A DNA stretch of 64,000 nt, from positions 11,417 to 75,416 of the forward strand of contig CAZKWX010000001.1 in assembly GCA_964556685.1 (NCBI GenBank). The letters are read 5' to 3'. The first letter of the stretch is position 1, and the number at the start of each line of letters is the position of its first letter. Below are positions 4,341 to 61,076 of this stretch, piece by piece. The position numbers were made by a program, and so were the translations under genes. Source of the DNA: an uncultured Bdellovibrionales bacterium. Lineage in GTDB: Bacteria; Patescibacteriota; Minisyncoccia; Moranbacterales; DUUL01. The notes beneath the pieces were generated by a model that was given only the letters and a program-made list of their open reading frames with translations, had not been told where the DNA came from and did not search any database.

Positions 4341-4443
4341 TTATCAATAATCAATAAACAATTATCATTCAATAATCAATGATCAATTTCAAAATGAAAA
4401 TTCATTGATAACTGATAATTGTAAATTGAAAATTTTATAAGAT

Positions 4444-5424
4444 ATGGCGAAAGGAGCTAAAGAAATACAACGAAGAATAAAATCAGTTGGCAACACTCGA
4501 AAAATCACTCGAGCGATGGAAATGGTGGCCGCTGCCAAGATGAAGAAGGAAGTTTCTCGCGTTTTGGCTATTCGGGCATATGCTCATAGCGCCCAGATGG
4601 TTTTAACATATCTATCTCGAGCATTTGCTAAACAGAAGCATGGTTTGTTAGAAGTACGAGAAGTCAAGAGAATCTTAGTGGTCTTAATTACATCGAACCG
4701 GGGACTATGCGGTGCTTACAACACTCAGGTGATAAAAAGACTCATAGACCAAGTGGAAAACCCAAAACTTCTGAAAATCAACCGAGTCGGAACAAAGAGA
4801 ATCGAATCAACAGTGCCGGATGATCAGATTGAGTTTGACTTTATCGCAGTGGGAAAGAAAGGCTTTGAACAACTCAATGCACGAGGAAAAAATGTGATTG
4901 CTGAATTTGAAGATTTGAATTACACACCAACACCAGATTCTGTTTGGCCATTAGCCAAGATTGCTATTGATGACTATCAGAATGCAAATTATGACAAAGT
5001 AGTAGTAGCCTACACCGACTTCAAGAACTCTCTGATTCAAGAACCAAAGCTGCGTCAGATTTTGCCGATTTCAAAGATTGACTTGGAAAAGCAAATTGAG
5101 GAAATGAGTTCTGGGATTTCTGGTGATGAAATTCAGGAAACAGAATCAAAGGAAGAAGAGCAGATTGATTATACGATTGAACCAGATCCGCAAGTTGTGG
5201 TGAAACATATGTTGCCGAGGTTGGTGGAAATGCAGCTTTATCATGCCATTTTAGAATCTAATGCTTCACGAGAATCGGCTCGGATGATGGCTATGAAAAA
5301 TGCTAATGAAGCAGCAGGAGAAATGATACAGCTGTTGCAATATTCATATAACCAGATTCGCCAGATGGGAATTACTCAAGAGATTGCGGAGATCACTTCG
5401 GGAAGAACGGCACTTGAGGATTAG
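4444..5424 (+). CDS. atpG: F0F1 ATP synthase subunit gamma
   Basis: N-terminal IQRRIKSVGNTRKITRAMEMVAAAKMKK and C-terminal NQIRQMGITQEIAEI coiled-coil motifs characteristic of gamma. Confidence 0.9.
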   Translation: MAKGAKEIQRRIKSVGNTRKITRAMEMVAAAKMKKEVSRVLAIRAYAHSAQMVLTYLSRAFAKQKHGLLEVREVKRILVVLITSNRGLCGAYNTQVIKRLIDQVENPKLLKINRVGTKRIESTVPDDQIEFDFIAVGKKGFEQLNARGKNVIAEFEDLNYTPTPDSVWPLAKIAIDDYQNANYDKVVVAYTDFKNSLIQEPKLRQILPISKIDLEKQIEEMSSGISGDEIQETESKEEEQIDYTIEPDPQVVVKHMLPRLVEMQLYHAILESNASRESARMMAMKNANEAAGEMIQLLQYSYNQIRQMGITQEIAEITSGRTALED

Positions 5425-5518
5425 TTTTTATAAGCTAGTTATACGCTTTAATACTATCGCCAGTATTACGCCAGCGTATCACCAGCGTTTAGTCAAGGTG
5501 TATTACTGGCTTATATTT

Positions 5519-6073
5519 ATGTTGGAAGTTGAAGCTAAAATTAGAGTAAAAGACCTGGAAACCGCTAGAAAGAATCTCAAAAAGCTGGGAGCCAAAAAAG
5601 TGGAAGAAAAAGTCCAAATTGATAAAGTGTATGGGCGAGATTCTGATTTAGACGACGAGCATAAGGTAATTGAAGGAAGATTCAGCGCCAGGATTAGAAA
5701 GACTAACAAAGTCTGCCGGATTGATTTTAAGGAGATTTTGCGAGGCAAACCAGGCGACGAACATAACATTGAACTGAGTGACATTGATGAGGGTGATAAG
5801 TTTTTACAAAAATTGGATTATAAAGAGGCCTTCACATCGGAGAAGAAAAGGGAAATCTATGGATATGAAAGTTTTGAAATTTGCTTGGATGACTTTCCAA
5901 AACTTGGCTATTTCATTGAAGCAGAAAAAAAGATTGAAGAAGGAGAAAGCAAGGAAGATGCGTATAAAAGTTGTGTGGAAGTTTTGAAGAAAATTGATCC
6001 AAGGGGAGAGATTGAAAACAAAAAATATGGGGATTTGATTCAGGAAGTGATTAATGAGAAAGGGAAGTTTTAA
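5519..6073 (+). CDS. CYTH-domain protein (class IV adenylyl cyclase / triphosphate tunnel metalloenzyme-like)
   Basis: N-terminal MLEVEAKIRV carries the ExExK signature of CYTH. Acidic clusters downstream. The tool ORF 5384 start overlaps the atpG tail; the in-frame ATG at 5519 is preferred. Confidence 0.55.
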   Translation: MLEVEAKIRVKDLETARKNLKKLGAKKVEEKVQIDKVYGRDSDLDDEHKVIEGRFSARIRKTNKVCRIDFKEILRGKPGDEHNIELSDIDEGDKFLQKLDYKEAFTSEKKREIYGYESFEICLDDFPKLGYFIEAEKKIEEGESKEDAYKSCVEVLKKIDPRGEIENKKYGDLIQEVINEKGKF

Positions 6074-6080
6074 CACACAT

Positions 6081-6157
6081 GTCATCTCGACCGAAGCGAA
6101 GTGGAGAGATCTCATGACAACTCACGAGATTCCTCGACTACGCCCGGAATGACAGTG
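6081..6157. repeat. MITE-like element, family B (ATGTCAT..CGA ... TCG..ATGAC terminal inverted repeats)
   Basis: Shares the GAGATCTCATGACAA / GAGATTCCTCGACTACGC core with copies at 34258, 43219 and 60996. Confidence 0.7.
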
Positions 6158-6165
6158 AATTAATT

Positions 6166-6654
6166 ATGAAAAAGTACAATAAAACAGTTCAAGACATTAA
6201 AACGCTGCTGGAGAAAAATGATATCGAATACAAGTTCTTTGAGCACAAACCAGTCAGGACTAGTGAAGAGGCAGTGAAAGTAAGGCCAGATTATAGTTTG
6301 CAACAAGGAGCCAAAGCTATGATTGTCAAGCCCAAAATTAATGGCGAAAGAACATTCGTGATGCTGGTTTTGCCGGGAGACAAGCGATTTGACAACAAGA
6401 AGGTGAAAAAAGTTTTGGACGCTAAAGATGTTACTTTCGCATCCGAAGAAGAAGTCGCCAAATTGACAAATGGAGTAATCCCAGGAGGAGTTCCACCGTT
6501 TGGTAATTTGTTTGGACTGAAAGTGGTTGCTGATCCTGATTTATTTAAAAATGATGAAATAGTTTTTAACTGTGGTGATCAGAGCGCTTCAATTGCAATG
6601 AAGAGTGAAGACTATGAACGAATTGTCAAACCAGAAATTGTCGAGATAACTTAG
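6166..6654 (+). CDS. YbaK/ProX-type aminoacyl-tRNA deacylase domain protein
   Basis: ~160 aa. GVIPGGVPPFGNLFG and CG..SASI motifs resemble the YbaK/EbsC trans-editing domain. Confidence 0.6.
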   Translation: MKKYNKTVQDIKTLLEKNDIEYKFFEHKPVRTSEEAVKVRPDYSLQQGAKAMIVKPKINGERTFVMLVLPGDKRFDNKKVKKVLDAKDVTFASEEEVAKLTNGVIPGGVPPFGNLFGLKVVADPDLFKNDEIVFNCGDQSASIAMKSEDYERIVKPEIVEIT

Positions 6655-6718
6655 GAGCAATTTGAAATTTGAAGTTTGTAATTTTTATTCAATTTATAAT
6701 TAATCAATTTCGAATTGA

Positions 6719-8134
<1,416 letters not shown>

Positions 8135-8212: not shown

Positions 8213-8256
8213 ATAAAGAAATGCTGTAGTGGTACGACATGCTATATTGAAAAATA

Positions 8257-8288
8257 GTATATACCAACGTATATACGAATGTATATAC
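8257..8288. repeat. GTATATAC x3 array (family D)
   Basis: gtatatac-caac-gtatatac-gaat-gtatatac: three copies of the palindromic 8-mer at 12-bp phase. Confidence 0.8.
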
Positions 8289-8307
8289 AAATTAAGCAAG
8301 TATCTTT

Positions 8308-19788: not shown

Positions 19789-19914
19789 TTGTTCAGAAAG
19801 CGGAAATTGGTAATGGAAATTTGAAAATAGAAGATAGATAAATTCAAAAATAAATATGCCAATTTCAAATATCCATTTTCAATTACTGATTTCCAGTTTC
19901 CAAACAGCCAGTTT

Positions 19915-24631: not shown

Positions 24632-24683
24632 ATGTATTAGGTATTAATACTTTGTCATTCCCGTGAAGGCGGGAATCTATTAG
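24632..24683. repeat. Family F element (TATTAGGTATTA..TTGTCATTCCCG-loop-CGGGAATCTATTAG)
   Basis: Reverse-complement copy of the element at 55193-55250. Confidence 0.6.
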
Positions 24684-26070: not shown

Positions 26071-26208
26071 TCCCTCCCCTTGGTAAAGGGAGGTTGGGAG
26101 GGGTTCGTCAGAATGTCAGGAGTCGCCGACCATTTTAACTAACTCCCCGAGCAAAGCTCATCCGCTTCGCTCCACTCCACTCTTACCAAGAGGGGGAAAA
26201 GAAATGAA
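26071..26208. repeat. Family A composite repeat (GGGTTCGTCAGAATGTCAGGAGTCGCC...CTAACTCCCCGAGCAAAGCTCATCCGCTTCGCTCCACTCTTACCAAGAGGGGGAA)
   Basis: A ~100-nt core recurs at 47141, 54515, 60195 and partially at 30381. It contains three internal hairpins. Confidence 0.75.
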
Positions 26209-29880: not shown

Positions 29881-29960
29881 TGTTTTTCTTCCCCTCTTCT
29901 TAAGAGGGGACTGAATTCATTGGTTTTGAATTCAGGGAGTTCGTCGGGAGGCTGTTATGT
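29881..29960. repeat. hairpin-module repeat (CCCCTCTT-CTT-AAGAGGGG + CTGAATTCA-TTGGTTTT-GAATTCAG)
   Basis: The TGAATTCA-N-TGAATTCA hairpin module recurs at ~36518, ~47164 and ~58785. Confidence 0.6.
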
Positions 29961-29979: not shown

Positions 29980-30363
29980 TTAATTATCCAGTCCTAATTC
30001 TTCTCTAATTTTGAACAAAATCCCGTCTAAATTATTATATATTTCATTGTTCCAAAATCTGACAGCCTTAATTCTTTGTGTTTTTAAAAATTCAGACCTA
30101 TTCTTGTCACTTTCTCTGCTACTTTCATAAGCATGTTGATCCCCATCTAATTCTATGGCCAGTCTCTTTCTAGGACAATAAAAATCTAAAATGTATTTTC
30201 CTATACTGTATTGCCGATAAAATTTGTATCCCTCAATTTGTTTATTTCTTAACTGTTGCCATAATTTTCCTTCAGCGTCAGTCTGATTTTTTCGAAAAGC
30301 TCGGGGCAATTGTTTAGATCTTTTTTGATTGTGTCGATTAGACAACATCTTTTTATTTATCAT
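29980..30363 (-). CDS. DUF559 / Vsr-like endonuclease-fold protein
   Basis: YRQYSIGKYILDFYCPRKRLAIELDGDQH matches the DUF559 (very-short-patch-repair endonuclease-like) core. ATG at 30363. Confidence 0.6.
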   Translation of the reverse strand: MINKKMLSNRHNQKRSKQLPRAFRKNQTDAEGKLWQQLRNKQIEGYKFYRQYSIGKYILDFYCPRKRLAIELDGDQHAYESSRESDKNRSEFLKTQRIKAVRFWNNEIYNNLDGILFKIREELGLDN

Positions 30364-30380
30364 TGACAACTGCCAGATAG

Positions 30381-30418
30381 CTAACTCCCCCTAACCCCCT
30401 CTTGCCAAGAGGGGGAAT
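30381..30418. repeat. partial family A element (CTAACTCCCCCTAACCCCCTCTTGCCAAGAGGGGGAA)
   Basis: Matches the 3' half of family A. Confidence 0.55.
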
Positions 30419-30430
30419 TCATATAATTTA

Positions 30431-32422
30431 CTAATTTCGCTTATAAATCACTGTGTTAGTTGAAGCATATACCTTAGAGAAATTATTTGAATTGTCAAAT
30501 TGGGCGTTGTCATAACCTTTTTTGAGCATGATGTATTTCACTCCGGTTTCGTCGTAACACTGCACTCCACGCTCGGTGTCTGGCTGAATAACCATGTCTC
30601 TAGTGCAGGTTTCTCGTTTCTTGTATATGTCGTCATAGCGTTTGTCGAAAGTCCGCGAAAGCGGATATTTATATCCCCGCATAAAAAATATTTTTATCCA
30701 CGAGTCTCCGGCCAAATGAGTATGGTCCTTGAGAACTTGTTCATCTTTAGTGGTTCGATCAGCCAAATACATTGAGGCCAAATAGGTTTGAAAAACTTCC
30801 TGATTTTTTCTGGGATCATGGTCACGAGCTGAGTCAGAAATGTCGGAAAAACCAGAAATAAATCCAGTTCCGAAGATGACTAGCCCGACAAGAATGGCCA
30901 ATGCCTTGGAAAGTCTTCGAGCAGAGAGGGCAAAAATTAGTACAACAGAAATGGCTGCCAAAATCGACATAGGGTAAGTGATGTAGCTAACGATTCTGTT
31001 GGAAGGAATGTCAACCTTCAAAAAGGTAGGTTTAACACTCATCAAAATGATCATGACAGTCCAAGCGAGCAAAAATCCCAGCGATGCCAAGATAAGAATG
31101 TTTTTCTTCTCATTGCCATCTTTGCCAGATTTTTTGAAGACAAAAAGCATAACTAGTGCGATGACGGCCAATCCGATCATTCCATAGAGAAATCTCCAAG
31201 GTCCAGCGCTGAGTATCACTGCTCCGATGGTCAGTCCAGTTCGAGTGGCCTTGACGGGTGTGCCCACGGCGGTGTCAATTGCTTCAGGATTGAGATAGGA
31301 TGGCTCGCGAACAAAGAAAAAGAAGAGGATCAATAAAATTACCAGGATCATGTTGCGGAAGGCAAAAAACGGTTTCGCATAAACTAGGAGGGCAGAAAAA
31401 AACTTTTTCAAATTGAAACGATAATAAATCAAAAGCGCTACGAGTAAAACTACCAAAAATCCAACCAGAGCATATAAAAATATATAACTGGAAAGATGAT
31501 GAGTATAGACCATAGTGGCTACAGCCAGAATAAAAGCCATGGCTAAGTTGCGACTCTTGAATTTCAGTGTTGTGACAAAAAGATAGATTACGAAAGGGAT
31601 GAAGAAGTTGCCAATGATGTTGCCAATCACGCCGCCAGAAACAAATTTGGCTCCCGGAGATGAAATTGCATAAAAAGTACCAGTGATGAGCAGAACAAAG
31701 AATGCAATATTTTTTGCCGTTCTTTTTTTGGTAAAATATTCACTCAAACGATAGGCTAAAATAAATATGGCCAGTAATGAAAAAATATTGATTAGAAACA
31801 AAGTGACAACCGGCATGGCACTGACAAAGGGAATCTTCGTCAATGCAGCAACCGAAGCAAAAACGATGTGTTCACCGATAATGAAATCTGGTTGGCCATC
31901 ATAGTCAGGCAGTGTTCCATTGGTGGTGATGTAACTGGACCAATACATGTGATGGCCCATGTCGGTGGTTTGGGGCATGATGCCGCGAGAAACATAGAAA
32001 CCACGAATGGCGACAGCGAACAATAGAATCAAAATAAATATTAAAATCTGCCGATAGGAGAAATGCCGCAAAGAGGAGAAGTAATCTTCTTTCGGTGTCA
32101 TCCCGGACTTGCCGTGCCCGCTCTTTGGAGGGATCCGGGATCCATTCTCTCTAGTCCTAAGTTTATAAACACCCCAGCAAAGAGCAGAGAACAGCAATAT
32201 GACCATCAAAATCCATTTTCCTGTGATGGGAATGCTGCCAAAATCCATCAGCATGACCAGAAAGTTGGTGGCAGTCAGACTCAGTCCGAAAGAAATGACT
32301 AACTTTTCCAATGCAGAAAACCGGTTTTGAAAGCGACCCAAAATAGCTAACATAAAAAAGAATCCCGGAATAAAAAGGACCAAAAAAATTGATAAATAAA
32401 GTTTTATTATGGGTATTAGCAT
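30431..32422 (-). CDS. large polytopic membrane protein with C-terminal extracytoplasmic domain (possible GT-C-like glycosyltransferase / polymerase)
   Basis: ~13 TM helices plus a ~150-aa soluble C-terminal domain. Sits in the glycan cluster. Family assignment uncertain. Confidence 0.45.
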   Translation of the reverse strand: MLIPIIKLYLSIFLVLFIPGFFFMLAILGRFQNRFSALEKLVISFGLSLTATNFLVMLMDFGSIPITGKWILMVILLFSALCWGVYKLRTRENGSRIPPKSGHGKSGMTPKEDYFSSLRHFSYRQILIFILILLFAVAIRGFYVSRGIMPQTTDMGHHMYWSSYITTNGTLPDYDGQPDFIIGEHIVFASVAALTKIPFVSAMPVVTLFLINIFSLLAIFILAYRLSEYFTKKRTAKNIAFFVLLITGTFYAISSPGAKFVSGGVIGNIIGNFFIPFVIYLFVTTLKFKSRNLAMAFILAVATMVYTHHLSSYIFLYALVGFLVVLLVALLIYYRFNLKKFFSALLVYAKPFFAFRNMILVILLILFFFFVREPSYLNPEAIDTAVGTPVKATRTGLTIGAVILSAGPWRFLYGMIGLAVIALVMLFVFKKSGKDGNEKKNILILASLGFLLAWTVMIILMSVKPTFLKVDIPSNRIVSYITYPMSILAAISVVLIFALSARRLSKALAILVGLVIFGTGFISGFSDISDSARDHDPRKNQEVFQTYLASMYLADRTTKDEQVLKDHTHLAGDSWIKIFFMRGYKYPLSRTFDKRYDDIYKKRETCTRDMVIQPDTERGVQCYDETGVKYIMLKKGYDNAQFDNSNNFSKVYASTNTVIYKRN

Positions 32423-34257: not shown

Positions 34258-34392
34258 TGTCATTCCGAGCGTAGTCACGTCGTTCTAGAATGACAGTGAC
34301 GTAGTCGAGGAATCTCGAGAATTTTAATTAGATTTCTCCACTTCGCTACGCGGAGCCTGCACTGAGCAAGGCCGAATGTGGTCGAAATGACA
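34258..34392. repeat. MITE-like element family B (long copy)
   Basis: ATGTCATTCCGAGCGTAGTC ... GTCGAAATGACAT terminal inverted repeats. Internal GAGGAATCTCGAGA and CTCCACTTCGCTACGC cores. Confidence 0.7.
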
Positions 34393-36219: not shown

Positions 36220-36338
36220 AAAAGTTATCAAGATGTATAGTGGGTAAAATTTTAGATCATAAAACCGGGAGTCGTCGACACGATTAGCCGGTTTTTTGCT
36301 TGAAAAAAATACTCCATAGAGAACTCTATGGAGGACAC

Positions 36339-36370
36339 GTATATACGAACGTATATACGTTGGTATATAC
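36339..36370. repeat. GTATATAC x3 array (family D)
   Basis: gtatatac-gaac-gtatatac-gttg-gtatatac. Preceded by the perfect palindrome CTCCATAGAG-AA-CTCTATGGAG. Confidence 0.8.
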
Positions 36371-36419
36371 TAGTCTCAACTCGCTAGCATAGCTATGCAC
36401 TTTGGCAACTACTTATTTA

Positions 36420-43218: not shown

Positions 43219-43319
43219 TGTCATCCCGAGCGAAGTCCCGCCTTAGCGGGAAGAAGTCGAGGGATCTCATGACAATAACGAGATCTCTCCACTTCGCTAC
43301 GCTACGGTCGAGATGACAT
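43219..43319. repeat. MITE-like element family B
   Basis: TGTCATCCCGAGCGAAGTC ... GGTCGAGATGACAT inverted termini. Sits between rmlB and rmlD. Confidence 0.7.
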
Positions 43320-44399: not shown

Positions 44400-45338
44400 A
44401 TGACAGTTAAGCAAATTTGTGATTTGGCGACGAAAATTGGCATCAAGAATGATTTTCGAACTAAAGCTGAAATCAATGAATATCTGAAGAAACAGAAAAA
44501 GGAATATGATGATCTTCCCAAGGAAGAGAAAAAATATTTTGATAAGGAGAAATTCAGCAATCCATACTCAGACAGTCGTATTAATTTTGACAGTGGTAAA
44601 AAAATAAAAAAAATAATCAGTGGCATCGATTTGACCATGGGAGGTGTATTGCTGGCAAAAGAACTTCAGGCCGATTTGATTCTCCTCCATCACCCGGTCG
44701 GGTCTGCCTTAGCTAATCTTGACGGAGTGATGGATCTTCAAGTTGATATGATGGAAAAATATGGCGTACCGGTTAATATTGCTGAAAAATTACTTCATAA
44801 AAGAATTTCCGAAGTAGCTCGAGGAGTAAATCCAGTCAATCATCAGGTAACAGTTGATGCTGCTAAATTACTTAACATCAGTTTGGCTAACATTCACACT
44901 CCTGCGGATAACTGCGTGGCAAAATTTGTTGAAGATAAAATTAAAAAAGCAAAGCCTAAGTATGCCTCGGACATTATGAAGGTCTTAAATTCCATTAAAG
45001 AATATCAGGAAGCTAAAAAGCAAGGAGTGGGTCCCAGATTGTTTGTTGGAGACGAGAAGAACCGTTGCGGAAAAGTTGTCGTATCTGAAATGACCGGTGG
45101 CACTGAAGGTTCGAAAGAAATCTATCAGGCTATGGCCAATACTGGTATCGGAACCGTTGTCGGCATGCATCAAAGCGAAGAACACAGGAAAGCGGCTGAA
45201 AAAGCGCATATCAATGTAATTATCGCGGGGCACATTTCCTCTGACTCACTTGGCATGAATTTAATCTTAGACGAACTTGAAAAGAAAGGGATGAAAATCA
45301 TTCCGTTTTCAGGTTTGATTCGTATTAAGCGATGCTAA
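44400..45338 (+). CDS. Nif3-family dinuclear metal centre protein (GTP cyclohydrolase 1 type 2 homolog)
   Basis: ADLILLHHP, NIHTPADN and AGHISSD motifs typical of NIF3/YqfO. The tool ORF starts at TTG 44367. Confidence 0.7.
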   Translation: MTVKQICDLATKIGIKNDFRTKAEINEYLKKQKKEYDDLPKEEKKYFDKEKFSNPYSDSRINFDSGKKIKKIISGIDLTMGGVLLAKELQADLILLHHPVGSALANLDGVMDLQVDMMEKYGVPVNIAEKLLHKRISEVARGVNPVNHQVTVDAAKLLNISLANIHTPADNCVAKFVEDKIKKAKPKYASDIMKVLNSIKEYQEAKKQGVGPRLFVGDEKNRCGKVVVSEMTGGTEGSKEIYQAMANTGIGTVVGMHQSEEHRKAAEKAHINVIIAGHISSDSLGMNLILDELEKKGMKIIPFSGLIRIKRC

Positions 45339-45382
45339 TCCACGAATGACATGCGAATACCACAAATTAAAATGCAGTAAAA

Positions 45383-45751
45383 ATGAAAAGGAGGATAATT
45401 GAAAAGGAATTGTCTTATGAAATTGTTGGTATTTGTTTTGATGTTCATAACGAGCTAGGGAGATTTCTAAGAGAGAAGCAATATGCCGATGAACTCGAAA
45501 AGAGGTTTTTGCAAAAAGGCATGAAGTATGAACGAGAGATTCTGTTAAACAAAATTTGTAAAAGCAACATAGAGGGCAACAAAGTTGATTTTCTGATTGA
45601 AAATAGAATTGTGCTGGAAGTTAAAAGCAAAGAAATTCATTTCAAAAGAAGATTATTATCAATTACAAAGATATTTAAGGTGTGCCAGTTTGCAACTGGG
45701 AATGATAGTAAATTTCAGACAACCGCACCTGAAGCCGAAAAGAGTGATTAA
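45383..45751 (+). CDS. GxxExxY-family (PDDEXK_3) protein
   Basis: ELSYEIVGICFDVHNELGRFLREKQYADEL ... VDFLIENRIVLEVKSKE matches the GxxExxY / PD-(D/E)xK_3 pattern. Confidence 0.6.
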   Translation: MKRRIIEKELSYEIVGICFDVHNELGRFLREKQYADELEKRFLQKGMKYEREILLNKICKSNIEGNKVDFLIENRIVLEVKSKEIHFKRRLLSITKIFKVCQFATGNDSKFQTTAPEAEKSD

Positions 45752-45822
45752 CAAATATTATAAAAAATAATGTCCAAGTATTATTTGCGGTATTCGTATG
45801 TAATTTGTAGCATTCGCATTGC

Positions 45823-55192: not shown

Positions 55193-55250
55193 ACTAATAG
55201 ATTCCCGCCTACGCGGGAATGACAAGCTATATATACTTAATACCTAATAC
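55193..55250. repeat. Family F element (CTAATAGATTCCCGCC-loop-CGGGAATGACAAGCTATATATACTTAATACCTAATAC)
   Basis: Mirror of 24632-24683. Immediately upstream of the Cas4-like gene. Confidence 0.6.
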
Positions 55251-58684: not shown

Positions 58685-58716
58685 GTATATACGAACGTAT
58701 ATACGTGGATATATAT
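58685..58716. repeat. GTATATAC array (two perfect copies plus a degenerate ATATATAT)
   Basis: gtatatac-gaac-gtatatac-gtgg-atatatat. Lies 18 nt upstream of the HAD start. Confidence 0.75.
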
Positions 58717-60960: not shown

Positions 60961-60995
60961 GTGCTCGATTACGTGGATTATAACATATATTTAAT

Positions 60996-61076
60996 GTCAT
61001 TTCGACTGGAGCGTAGCGGAATGGAGAAATCTCGTTTTATTCATGAGATTCCTCGACTACGCTCGGAATGACAGCA
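60996..61076. repeat. MITE-like element family B
   Basis: GTCATTTCGACTGGAGCGTAGCGGAATGGAGAAATCTC ... GAGATTCCTCGACTACGCTCGGAATGACAG. Directly upstream of rpmA. Confidence 0.7.

Follow-up and report, generated by a model that had tools for sequence, protein, structure and literature searches.

The stretch of 64,000 nt analysed here (contig CAZKWX010000001.1 of assembly GCA_964556685.1, positions 11,417 to 75,416; hereafter the window) comes from a Patescibacteria (Moranbacteria-like) genome and contains four short, related, gene-less elements with inverted ends, c1 to c4. The question raised by this locus is what kind of repeat these elements are and which enzyme acts on them. The initial annotation, made from the sequence of the window, regarded them as miniature inverted-repeat transposable elements (MITEs). 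They are better explained as a further case of a repeat/nuclease system that is already known, and not as the relics of a classical transposon. The repeats of this system are known as the Neisseria Transformation Sequence (NTS) and, in generalised form, as Ssn-related motifs (SRMs), and the same class has been catalogued as CGTC/TGTC-tagged repetitive extragenic palindromes (REPs). The four elements are probably inverted pairs, or doublets, of SRM hairpins, that is, gene-less dimers of a cassette of the form unit(+)-ssn-unit(-), which would be cut as single-stranded DNA (ssDNA) by Ssn, a small nuclease of the GIY-YIG type. A repeat of this genome that had been unexplained is now tied to a recently characterised enzyme-site system.

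All four copies reported earlier were present in the window, and their edges lay within 1-2 nt of those first given (c1, 6079/6080-6154; c2, 34257/34258-34392/3; c3, 43218/43219-43318/9; c4, 60994/60995-61073/4). Chance alone is far too weak to yield them. The terminal sequence ATGTCATYYCGA, with at most one mismatch, was found 7 times against an expectation of 1.47, and none of 100 shuffled sequences reached 7; the remaining terminus, at the right of c1 (CCGGAATGACA), carries additional mismatches. The claim of common internal cores was also borne out, because the 18-nt core GAGATTCCTCGACTACGC occurred 3 times where 0.03 matches were expected. In the alignment, c1 and c4 read on the plus strand correspond to c2 and c3 read on the minus strand, and a single oriented architecture is found in all four. 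The gene neighbourhoods first assigned to the copies (atp operon, glycosyltransferase (GT) genes, rmlB/rmlD and rpmA) were confirmed; all four copies are intergenic, and c1, c2 and c3 are situated within operons, where each starts 1-5 nt past the stop of the preceding gene.

What had been described as terminal inverted repeats (TIRs) proved to be the outer half of each of two oppositely oriented hairpin units. The same formula applies to all 8 arms, namely a TGTC tag, a 5-nt stem ATYYC, GA, a variable apex, GA, the complementary stem GRRAT and a C, except that the right unit of c1 has GG where the other arms have GA. Four stem sequences are found among the 8 arms (ATCTC, ATTCC, ATTTC and ATCCC), every 5-bp stem is perfectly paired, and the bases at the 3' end of all arms are C(TC/TA). 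Depending on the arm, the apex is a GNA-type mini-loop or an inserted hairpin; it reads GCGWAGTC in R-type arms and CCGNAGCG...AAGTG in L-type arms. Each doublet of the window is a heterodimer of one L-type and one R-type unit, with the tags pointing outward, one unit on each strand and a spacer of 12-13 nt. The spread in size among the copies comes from extra hairpins in the apical part of both arms of c2 and one arm of c3, which contradicts the earlier suggestion of internal deletions of a common ancestor. The insert in the R-type arm of c2 includes ...TCTAGAATGACA, which on direct inspection resembles the terminus of another unit.

To reveal which pairing is maintained, we scored the variable stem base at the four half-sites of 101 non-redundant metagenomic elements of the L/R subfamily found in the window. 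Within the left arm, the two halves were T/A in 57 elements and C/G in 28, and a single element was discordant (Fisher p = 9e-22). For the two halves of the right arm, the concordant classes numbered 49 and 40, with 3 discordant (Fisher p = 7e-23). Between the arms, the bases were independent, both for the outer halves (p = 1.0) and for the inner halves (p = 0.28). In addition, in right arms collected with a 17-mer, the half not constrained by the search agreed with the constrained half 141 times and disagreed twice. Among 63 distinct units free of any constraint from the search pattern, 91.7% of the stem cells were paired, and frames slid along the same sequences paired at only 16-57%; compensatory changes occurred at 4 of the 5 stem pairs, and 67 cells carried double changes against 21.8±3.7 after shuffling, a number that none of 500 shuffles reached. 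The distinct perfectly paired stems numbered 14. Because the stem base covaries within the arms and not between them, each arm is an independently maintained stem-loop, and the long hairpin that a whole copy can form is a by-product of the back-to-back placement of two units. Covariation inside each arm (p ~1e-22) and none between them is not the behaviour of the transposase-type TIRs that the ends had been taken for.

Bacterial MITEs, such as the Correia elements of Neisseria, are small, intergenic, gene-less and often co-transcribed, with inverted ends, and they are marked by TIRs of the transposase type and by duplications of the target site (TA for Correia). A classical MITE would be a deletion derivative of an insertion sequence (IS), either of the DDE type (IS630-like or other) or of the IS200/IS605 type, mobilised through its TIRs. 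The window copies resemble such an element in being short, multi-copy and intergenic, and their termini, 5'-TGTCAT...ATGACA-3', have the TG...CA look of a transposon. However, the covariation just described places the supposed TIR bases within the arms and not between the ends, and a check for TA or other target duplications revealed none beyond chance in 73 complete elements: the flanks were identical over 0 nt in 54 elements, 1 nt in 13 and 2 nt in 4, which equals the expectation from shuffled partners. In the window itself, no copy is bordered at its two ends by a direct repeat of 2 nt or more, and the flanks of the elements are without conserved bases, apart from a depletion of G 5' of the tag. 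In addition, no transposase was detected in a Pfam scan of ~50 open reading frames (ORFs) of the window, and when the ORFs lying up to 1.2 kb from the repeats were clustered, for the loci gathered up to that analysis, only clusters of phage homology and no recurrent partner gene family emerged. A cognate IS200/IS605 or IS630-like element had been suggested for the family; the only gene seen between identical ends elsewhere encodes a GIY-YIG nuclease of ~95 aa (PF01541). Thus, TIR behaviour and target-site duplications, both of which mark Correia-type MITEs, are missing in the doublet family, and a classical MITE origin is highly improbable. What stands of the earlier claim is a multi-copy, intergenic inverted-repeat family that has no mobilising gene in the window and has a gene-carrying counterpart, although not one of the TIR-bearing, target-duplicating kind of transposon.

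A repeat class of another kind has been described in Neisseria. Chenal et al. 2025 (Nat Commun, PMC11893778) reported the NTS, CGTCATTCCCGCGMAVGCGGGAATCYRG, which contains the dRS3 palindrome, and generalised it to the SRMs that flank ssnA, the gene of a 94-aa single-domain GIY-YIG nuclease. SsnA binds the hairpin as ssDNA only, on one strand, and nicks a few nt upstream of it; the three nt that precede the palindrome and the C that directly follows it are critical, and ssDNA-only binding and nicking have been established biochemically for the Neisseria and Wolbachia enzymes (PMC11893778). SRMs were found near 71% of ssnA homologues and on both sides in 42%, the system limits transformation by NTS-bearing DNA in Neisseria, and the authors likened NTS-ssnA-NTS to an insertion sequence, the mobility of which was not shown there (PMC11893778). 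Earlier, Di Nocera et al. 2013 (BMC Genomics, PMC3733652) had catalogued the same class as CGTC-tagged REPs, in which the tag is frequently TGTC, the stems start with AT and most repeats are dimers; dRS3 and the Rickettsia repeats RPE-4 and RPE-6 are included. That survey spanned 5 phyla, and Patescibacteria were not among them (PMC3733652).

The units of the window agree with the SRM/NTS in the (C/T)GTC tag at the 5' end, the start of the stem (ATYCC...) and the C right after the palindrome (GGAATC), and the family resembles the SRM/NTS in being multi-copy and intergenic and in flanking single-domain GIY-YIG genes of ~95 aa. With the CGTC/TGTC-REPs, they share the tag, the A-T stem start and a short unpaired tail; those REPs likewise occur mainly as inverted dimers, which may fold apart or into a single large stem-loop, and they include heterodimers. 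The differences lie in the arms and in the gene content. Unlike the SRM/NTS, a doublet arm consists of a 5-bp Watson-Crick stem, a tandem GA/GA and an apex that can be as small as a GNA mini-loop or can contain an inserted hairpin, and the window doublets are tight L-type plus R-type heterodimers with no ssn gene in the window. The CGTC/TGTC-REPs have 8-9-bp stems and 4-5-nt loops, in contrast to the 5 bp, GA·GA and variable apex of the doublet arms.

Hairpins with the canonical form are also present in the window. The published SRM search sequence, HGTCWYN(0-2)YYVSBRHN(0-5)WNVSBRGN(0-2)RNCYNB, which was built by hand from 29 genomes (PMC11893778), matched the window twice against 0.06 expected. 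The two single units found in this way are absent from the initial annotation. They are near-canonical, with 8-bp stems and 4-nt loops like those of the CGTC/TGTC-REPs and with the same tag, AT stem start and 3' C as the doublet arms, and they almost equal the Neisseria NTS consensus (TGTCATTCCCGYGWAGGCGGGAATCTATTAGT), from which the better of them departs at one loop position. The window therefore holds ten units in 64 kb, a high density (Table 1). The doublet arms represent a variant subclass, which would escape the published SRM search. A further hairpin of SRM outline, TGTC-ATCCC-N25-GGGAT-C (window 32096-32135, plus strand), lies within a 663-aa ORF and may be due to chance.

Table 1. Doublets, their constituent units and single NTS/SRM-type hairpins of the window.
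Feature	Position	Strand	Sequence	Context or remark
Doublet c1, 75 nt	6080..6154	+		between CYTH gene (stop 6073) and YbaK-like gene (start 6166), atp operon
c1 left unit, L-type	6080..6111	+	TGTC ATCTC GA CCGAAGCGAAGTG GA GAGAT C	perfect 5-bp stem
c1 right unit, R-type	6128..6154	-	TGTC ATTCC GG GCGTAGTC GA GGAAT C	minus-strand reading
Doublet c2, 135 nt	34258..34392	-		between GT2 gene (stop codon ends 34395, minus strand) and GT4 gene
c2 R-type unit	34258..34314	+	TGTC ATTCC GA GCGTAGTCACGTCGTTCTAGAATGACAGTGACGTAGTC GA GGAAT C	~26-nt apical insertion
c2 L-type unit	34331..34392	-	TGTC ATTTC GA CCACATTCGGCCTTGCTCAGTGCAGGCTCCGCGTAGCGAAGTG GA GAAAT C	apical hairpin insertion
Doublet c3, 100 nt	43219..43318	-		between rmlB (stop 43214) and rmlD
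c3 R-type unit	43219..43266	+	TGTC ATCCC GA GCGAAGTCCCGCCTTAGCGGGAAGAAGTC GA GGGAT C	apical GC hairpin
c3 L-type unit	43282..43318	-	TGTC ATCTC GA CCGTAGCGTAGCGAAGTG GA GAGAT C	
Doublet c4, 79 nt	60995..61073	+		directly upstream of rpmA (L27)
c4 L-type unit	60995..61031	+	TGTC ATTTC GA CTGGAGCGTAGCGGAATG GA GAAAT C	
c4 R-type unit	61047..61073	-	TGTC ATTCC GA GCGTAGTC GA GGAAT C	
Single NTS/SRM-type hairpin	24653..24680	+	TGTCATTCCCGTGAAGGCGGGAATCTAT	8-bp stem; between tmk and flippase gene; DNA -6.9 kcal/mol, z -4.6
Single NTS/SRM-type hairpin	55197..55224	-	TGTCATTCCCGCGTAGGCGGGAATCTAT	SRM search sequence match; DNA -8.9 kcal/mol, z -5.1

The link between the repeats and a GIY-YIG gene was obtained by inspecting the content between inverted units lying 300-3000 nt apart in loci from outside the window (designated by L numbers). 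In four unrelated loci, L088, L226, L301 and L205, units adjoin a gene encoding a GIY-YIG protein of 82-100 aa (PF01541, E ~1e-14). In L226 and L301, this gene is placed cleanly between a unit(+) and a unit(-); the units on its two sides form a more complex arrangement in L088 and L205. A search starting from the protein led to four viral loci (L312-L315), all of which have units at most 220 nt from the gene. Perfect copies of the Neisseria-type NTS flank it on both sides in L314, the gene of L313 likewise has units to its left and right, that of L315 has them only downstream, and a doublet lies upstream in L312, the contig of which stops just past the gene. The closest homologues of the L226 nuclease with a named source all come from Patescibacteria (Roizman-, Lipton-, Pace-, Parcu- and Gracilibacteria and Absconditicoccaceae), and in 3 of 3 Patescibacteria genomes the gene was found in or beside L/R doublets of the GA type seen in the window. 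The linkage thus extends to the candidate phyla radiation (CPR). On the Roizmanbacteria chromosome CP065004.1, a cassette of the form L-type(+)-ssn-R-type(-) (L322:9965-10316), the gene of which encodes a 94-aa protein (L322:10001-10285), lies 2.3 kb from a gene-less 50-nt L/R doublet (L322:7588-7637), and the right units of the two differ by a compensatory change in the stem. This chromosome thus holds ends of the same types with and without the gene. We consider the window doublets to be probable gene-less dimers of such a cassette. In total, units stood beside a GIY-YIG gene in 11 of 11 loci examined, with the unit-gene-unit pattern in five (L226, L301, L313, L314 and L322) and one-sided or doublet arrangements in L088, L205, L312, L315, L323 and L324/L325.

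The spacing of the residues Y8/Y19/E66 in the L226 nuclease equals that of Y6/Y17/E64 in Neisseria SsnA. Judged by Pfam domain, size and catalytic spacing, the GIY-YIG proteins found here appear to agree with the Ssn class (cd10448). No NCBIfam model matched these small proteins, and a PDB sequence search with them returned only weak matches to UPF0213.

This linkage also bears on the possibility that the doublets are REPINs, that is, REP doublets mobilised by a RAYT (REP-associated tyrosine/HUH transposase). REPINs and their RAYTs (Bertels & Rainey 2011; Nunvar 2010; Ton-Hoang 2012) resemble the system described here in many respects: they are inverted doublets of short palindromes that fold apart or as a long hairpin, they are non-autonomous and lack target-site duplications, their hairpins are presumed to be recognised as ssDNA, and their nuclease-type gene is single-copy and flanked by its own repeats. 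Moreover, REP dimers of this form were described for the CGTC class (PMC3733652). However, the tag here is CGTC/TGTC and not the GTAG of RAYT-associated REPs, and the 2013 survey found no association of CGTC repeats with tyrosine transposase genes (PMC3733652). The linked gene encodes a GIY-YIG protein in place of an HUH/Y1 transposase in all of the loci examined, and no other recurrent neighbour was seen, though no dedicated search for Y1 genes was made. REPIN-RAYT systems are also lineage-specific and vertically inherited, whereas the present motif is nearly unchanged across more than 15 phyla. A REPIN mobilised by a RAYT is very unlikely.

The breadth of this distribution was revealed by database searches. 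The 17-mer CTWCGCTCGGRATGACA of the right arm had matches in 60 IMG/VR (viral contig) stretches and in at least 120 GTDB genome stretches. Approximately 280 matches to a 17-mer would be expected by chance in 596 Gb, but a chance origin was ruled out because nearly all of the matches show extended family similarity. The GTDB matches listed come from more than 15 phyla, including Acidobacteriota, Verrucomicrobiota, Chloroflexota, Bacteroidota, several proteobacterial classes, Gemmatimonadota, Nitrospirota, Planctomycetota, Armatimonadota, Bacillota, Fibrobacterota, Patescibacteria and Peribacteria, together with one metagenome-assembled genome (MAG) of Nanoarchaeota. A pattern for the L/R subfamily of the window retrieved 118 metagenome stretches with GC contents of 0.29-0.70, all of which possess the common architecture with variable apical hairpins. 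The family thus has numerous further copies, and their termini align, both of which had been left as points to check for the window copies. No Rfam match was obtained for the whole window at gathering thresholds or for the surroundings of c2 at E <= 10, and a full-text search of the literature with the terminal sequence strings returned only unrelated primers.

Several observations concern the outside loci themselves. NIMEs are long mosaics specific to Neisseria, in which repeat blocks are bounded by dRS3. Dense alternating L/R arrays with linkers of ~8 nt and up to 28 half-sites in 1.4 kb, resembling NIMEs and BIMEs (bacterial interspersed mosaic elements), occur in L194, L236, L239, L262 and L298. 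Short variable sequences between inverted dRS3/NTS-type hairpins, and the alternating arrays of L194, L236 and L298, are features in common with NIMEs; the window copies differ from these long mosaics in being isolated, compact dimers. A unit variant, GTCATGCTGAAC..GTTTCAGCATC, adjoins family units in the Nanoarchaeota MAG (L091, DPANN) and also occurs near the GIY-YIG gene of the viral contig L315. On the viral contigs L015, L018, L026, L037, L061 and L068, tandem heptamers or octamers (for example, runs of GCGACCAG, CAGTCGG or CAGCTGT) lie directly upstream of single right-arm units. Four-helix-bundle genes of the type found in 23S intervening sequences (IVS) and heptamer repeats are present near some viral matches; a link with them was suspected early and was set aside for the GIY-YIG link.

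The position of c1-c3 shortly behind stop codons within operons could also suggest elements that act at the RNA level, such as intercistronic terminators, attenuators or mRNA stabilisers. Folded as RNA, the whole copies form a long imperfect hairpin of -29 to -51 kcal/mol (z -3 to -6), a strong fold that fits such a role. However, the copies have no T-run and no Rfam match even at E <= 10, their folding energy has no consistent strand preference, and they are found along as well as against the direction of transcription. Units are not tied to a particular gene context and occur in more than 15 phyla, also as singles; conservation resides in the arms and not in the long hairpin, and Neisseria SsnA does not bind the RNA form of its site (PMC11893778). 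We therefore consider a primary role in RNA to be improbable, while side effects on mRNA like those of REPs would be possible.

Several results weigh against the interpretation of the doublets as gene-less Ssn cassettes. First, no GIY-YIG ORF was found in the 64-kb window, either with phmmer among all ORFs of at least 50 aa or with Pfam among the ~50 ORFs scanned. Second, cleavage of GA-type units by any Ssn is not on record in the Ssn and REP literature consulted, and none of the 8 doublet arms fits the published SRM search sequence, owing to the tandem GA after the 5-bp stem. Third, in nearest-neighbour DNA energies, which give no credit to sheared G·A pairs and GNA loops, four short GA-type arms are weak on their own (-1.6 to -3.2 kcal/mol, z ~0). 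As DNA, the whole copies range from -13.8 kcal/mol in c1 (z -2.5) to -26.7 kcal/mol in c3 (z -5.5), and 3 of the 4 doublets favour the single long hairpin, in which the hairpins of the arms would be masked; the two forms would compete in ssDNA. Fourth, no empty site and no presence/absence polymorphism was found among population assemblies and the nearest relatives. An identical rmlB protein was found only on contigs in which c3 is unchanged, and c3 is the same in the independent Logan assemblies L307 and L308; contigs reached through atpA and pyrG carry c1 and c4 unchanged. The nearest relatives (Moranbacteria-like, with rmlB identities of 74-76%) differ in synteny and have no units at the locus. 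Differences in L324/L325 proved to be scaffold gaps. Two short-read Logan contigs with the GT2 gene (L001 and L002) terminate within c2, each 37 nt behind the stop codon of this gene; the repeat breaks the assemblies.

The lack of a nuclease gene in the window could also mean that the doublets are decaying relics, persisting by drift alone in a host lineage that has lost ssn. The GG in place of GA in the right unit of c1 and the large insertions in c2 might be regarded as signs of such decay. On the other hand, all 8 arms retain the perfect 5-bp stem, the TGTC tag and the 3' C, the density of units is high, and a Ssn homologue is encoded in 81% of genomes having more than 200 SRMs (PMC11893778), which makes decay unlikely. 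We infer that a cognate Ssn is encoded by this host, that it cleaves GA-type units, and that the doublets are or once were mobile.

Under the interpretation of the doublets as gene-less Ssn cassettes, each unit would fold on its own strand when the region becomes single-stranded during replication, DNA uptake or repair. A cognate Ssn encoded in the genome would then bind the unit and nick ~3 nt 5' of TGTC, and in a doublet with its tags outward this would produce two nicks just outside the ends, on opposite strands. The role of such nicking might be the spread or maintenance of cassette-derived dimers, in a relationship like that between an IS and its MITEs, or it might be to restrict or shape the recombination of incoming ssDNA, as in Neisseria.

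A bolder and rather doubtful proposal is that the doublets are non-autonomous mobile elements, copied or moved in trans by Ssn through nicks made in ssDNA just outside each hairpin, and hence members of a distinct class without target-site duplications whose "transposase" is a GIY-YIG protein. On the same tentative footing, one near-invariant hairpin might have spread through more than 15 phyla, the CPR and even a DPANN archaeon, the latter represented by a MAG. The presence of ends with and without the gene in one genome, the apparently nested unit in c2, the arrays and the taxonomic spread are compatible with this proposal; no insertion polymorphism was seen.

The identification of the doublets has several consequences. 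The published SRM motif misses a very common repeat class with a 5-bp stem, a tandem G·A and a variable apex, and the class is extended here to CPR genomes, in which small GIY-YIG genes with neighbouring units abound. In annotation, these hairpins break short-read assemblies and can create spurious small ORFs. In biology, they mark sites at which nicks specific to ssDNA could influence recombination or the uptake of DNA, in organisms believed to rely on scavenged DNA. In biotechnology, every new pair of unit and nuclease is a candidate sequence-specific cutter of ssDNA.

Two other small nuclease genes of the window are accompanied by repeats. A 122-aa gene of the PD-(D/E)XK type (PDDEXK_3, PF13366, E 2e-13) at 45383-45751 on the plus strand, with flanks at 45317-45375 and 45783-45818, is bracketed by the inverted repeats ATGCGAATACC ... 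GGTATTCGTAT / GCATTCGCAT and has an SRM-like hairpin, TGTC-ATTCG-N20-CGAAT-C, directly upstream; together with its flanks, this gene could be a further cassette built around a small nuclease. A 129-aa DUF559/Vsr-like endonuclease gene (PF04480, E 9e-34) at 29980-30369 on the minus strand, with flanks at 29893-29912 and 30395-30417, has CCCCTCTT..AAGAGGGG palindromes on both sides, and similar TTACCAAGAGGGG arms are found at 26073-26086 and 26183-26196; these palindromes appear to form a separate repeat family.

Other features of the window were also noted. At 5384-6654, the CYTH-domain gene and the YbaK-like aminoacyl-tRNA-editing gene, with c1 between them, split atpG from atpD, which is unusual for an atp operon. 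An AT-rich intergenic palindrome, TATATACGAACGTATATAC, recurs with variants at 8252-8293, 36334-36375 and 58686-58715, and the intergenic motif GAGTGGAGCGAAGCGGATGAGC occurs three times on the minus strand (~26156, 47246 and 54536), once as a variant. Finally, long, AATTT-rich, imperfect inverted repeats with 40-44-nt arms that are 73-75% complementary lie between operon genes at 4346-4434, 6659-6748 and 19796-19900.

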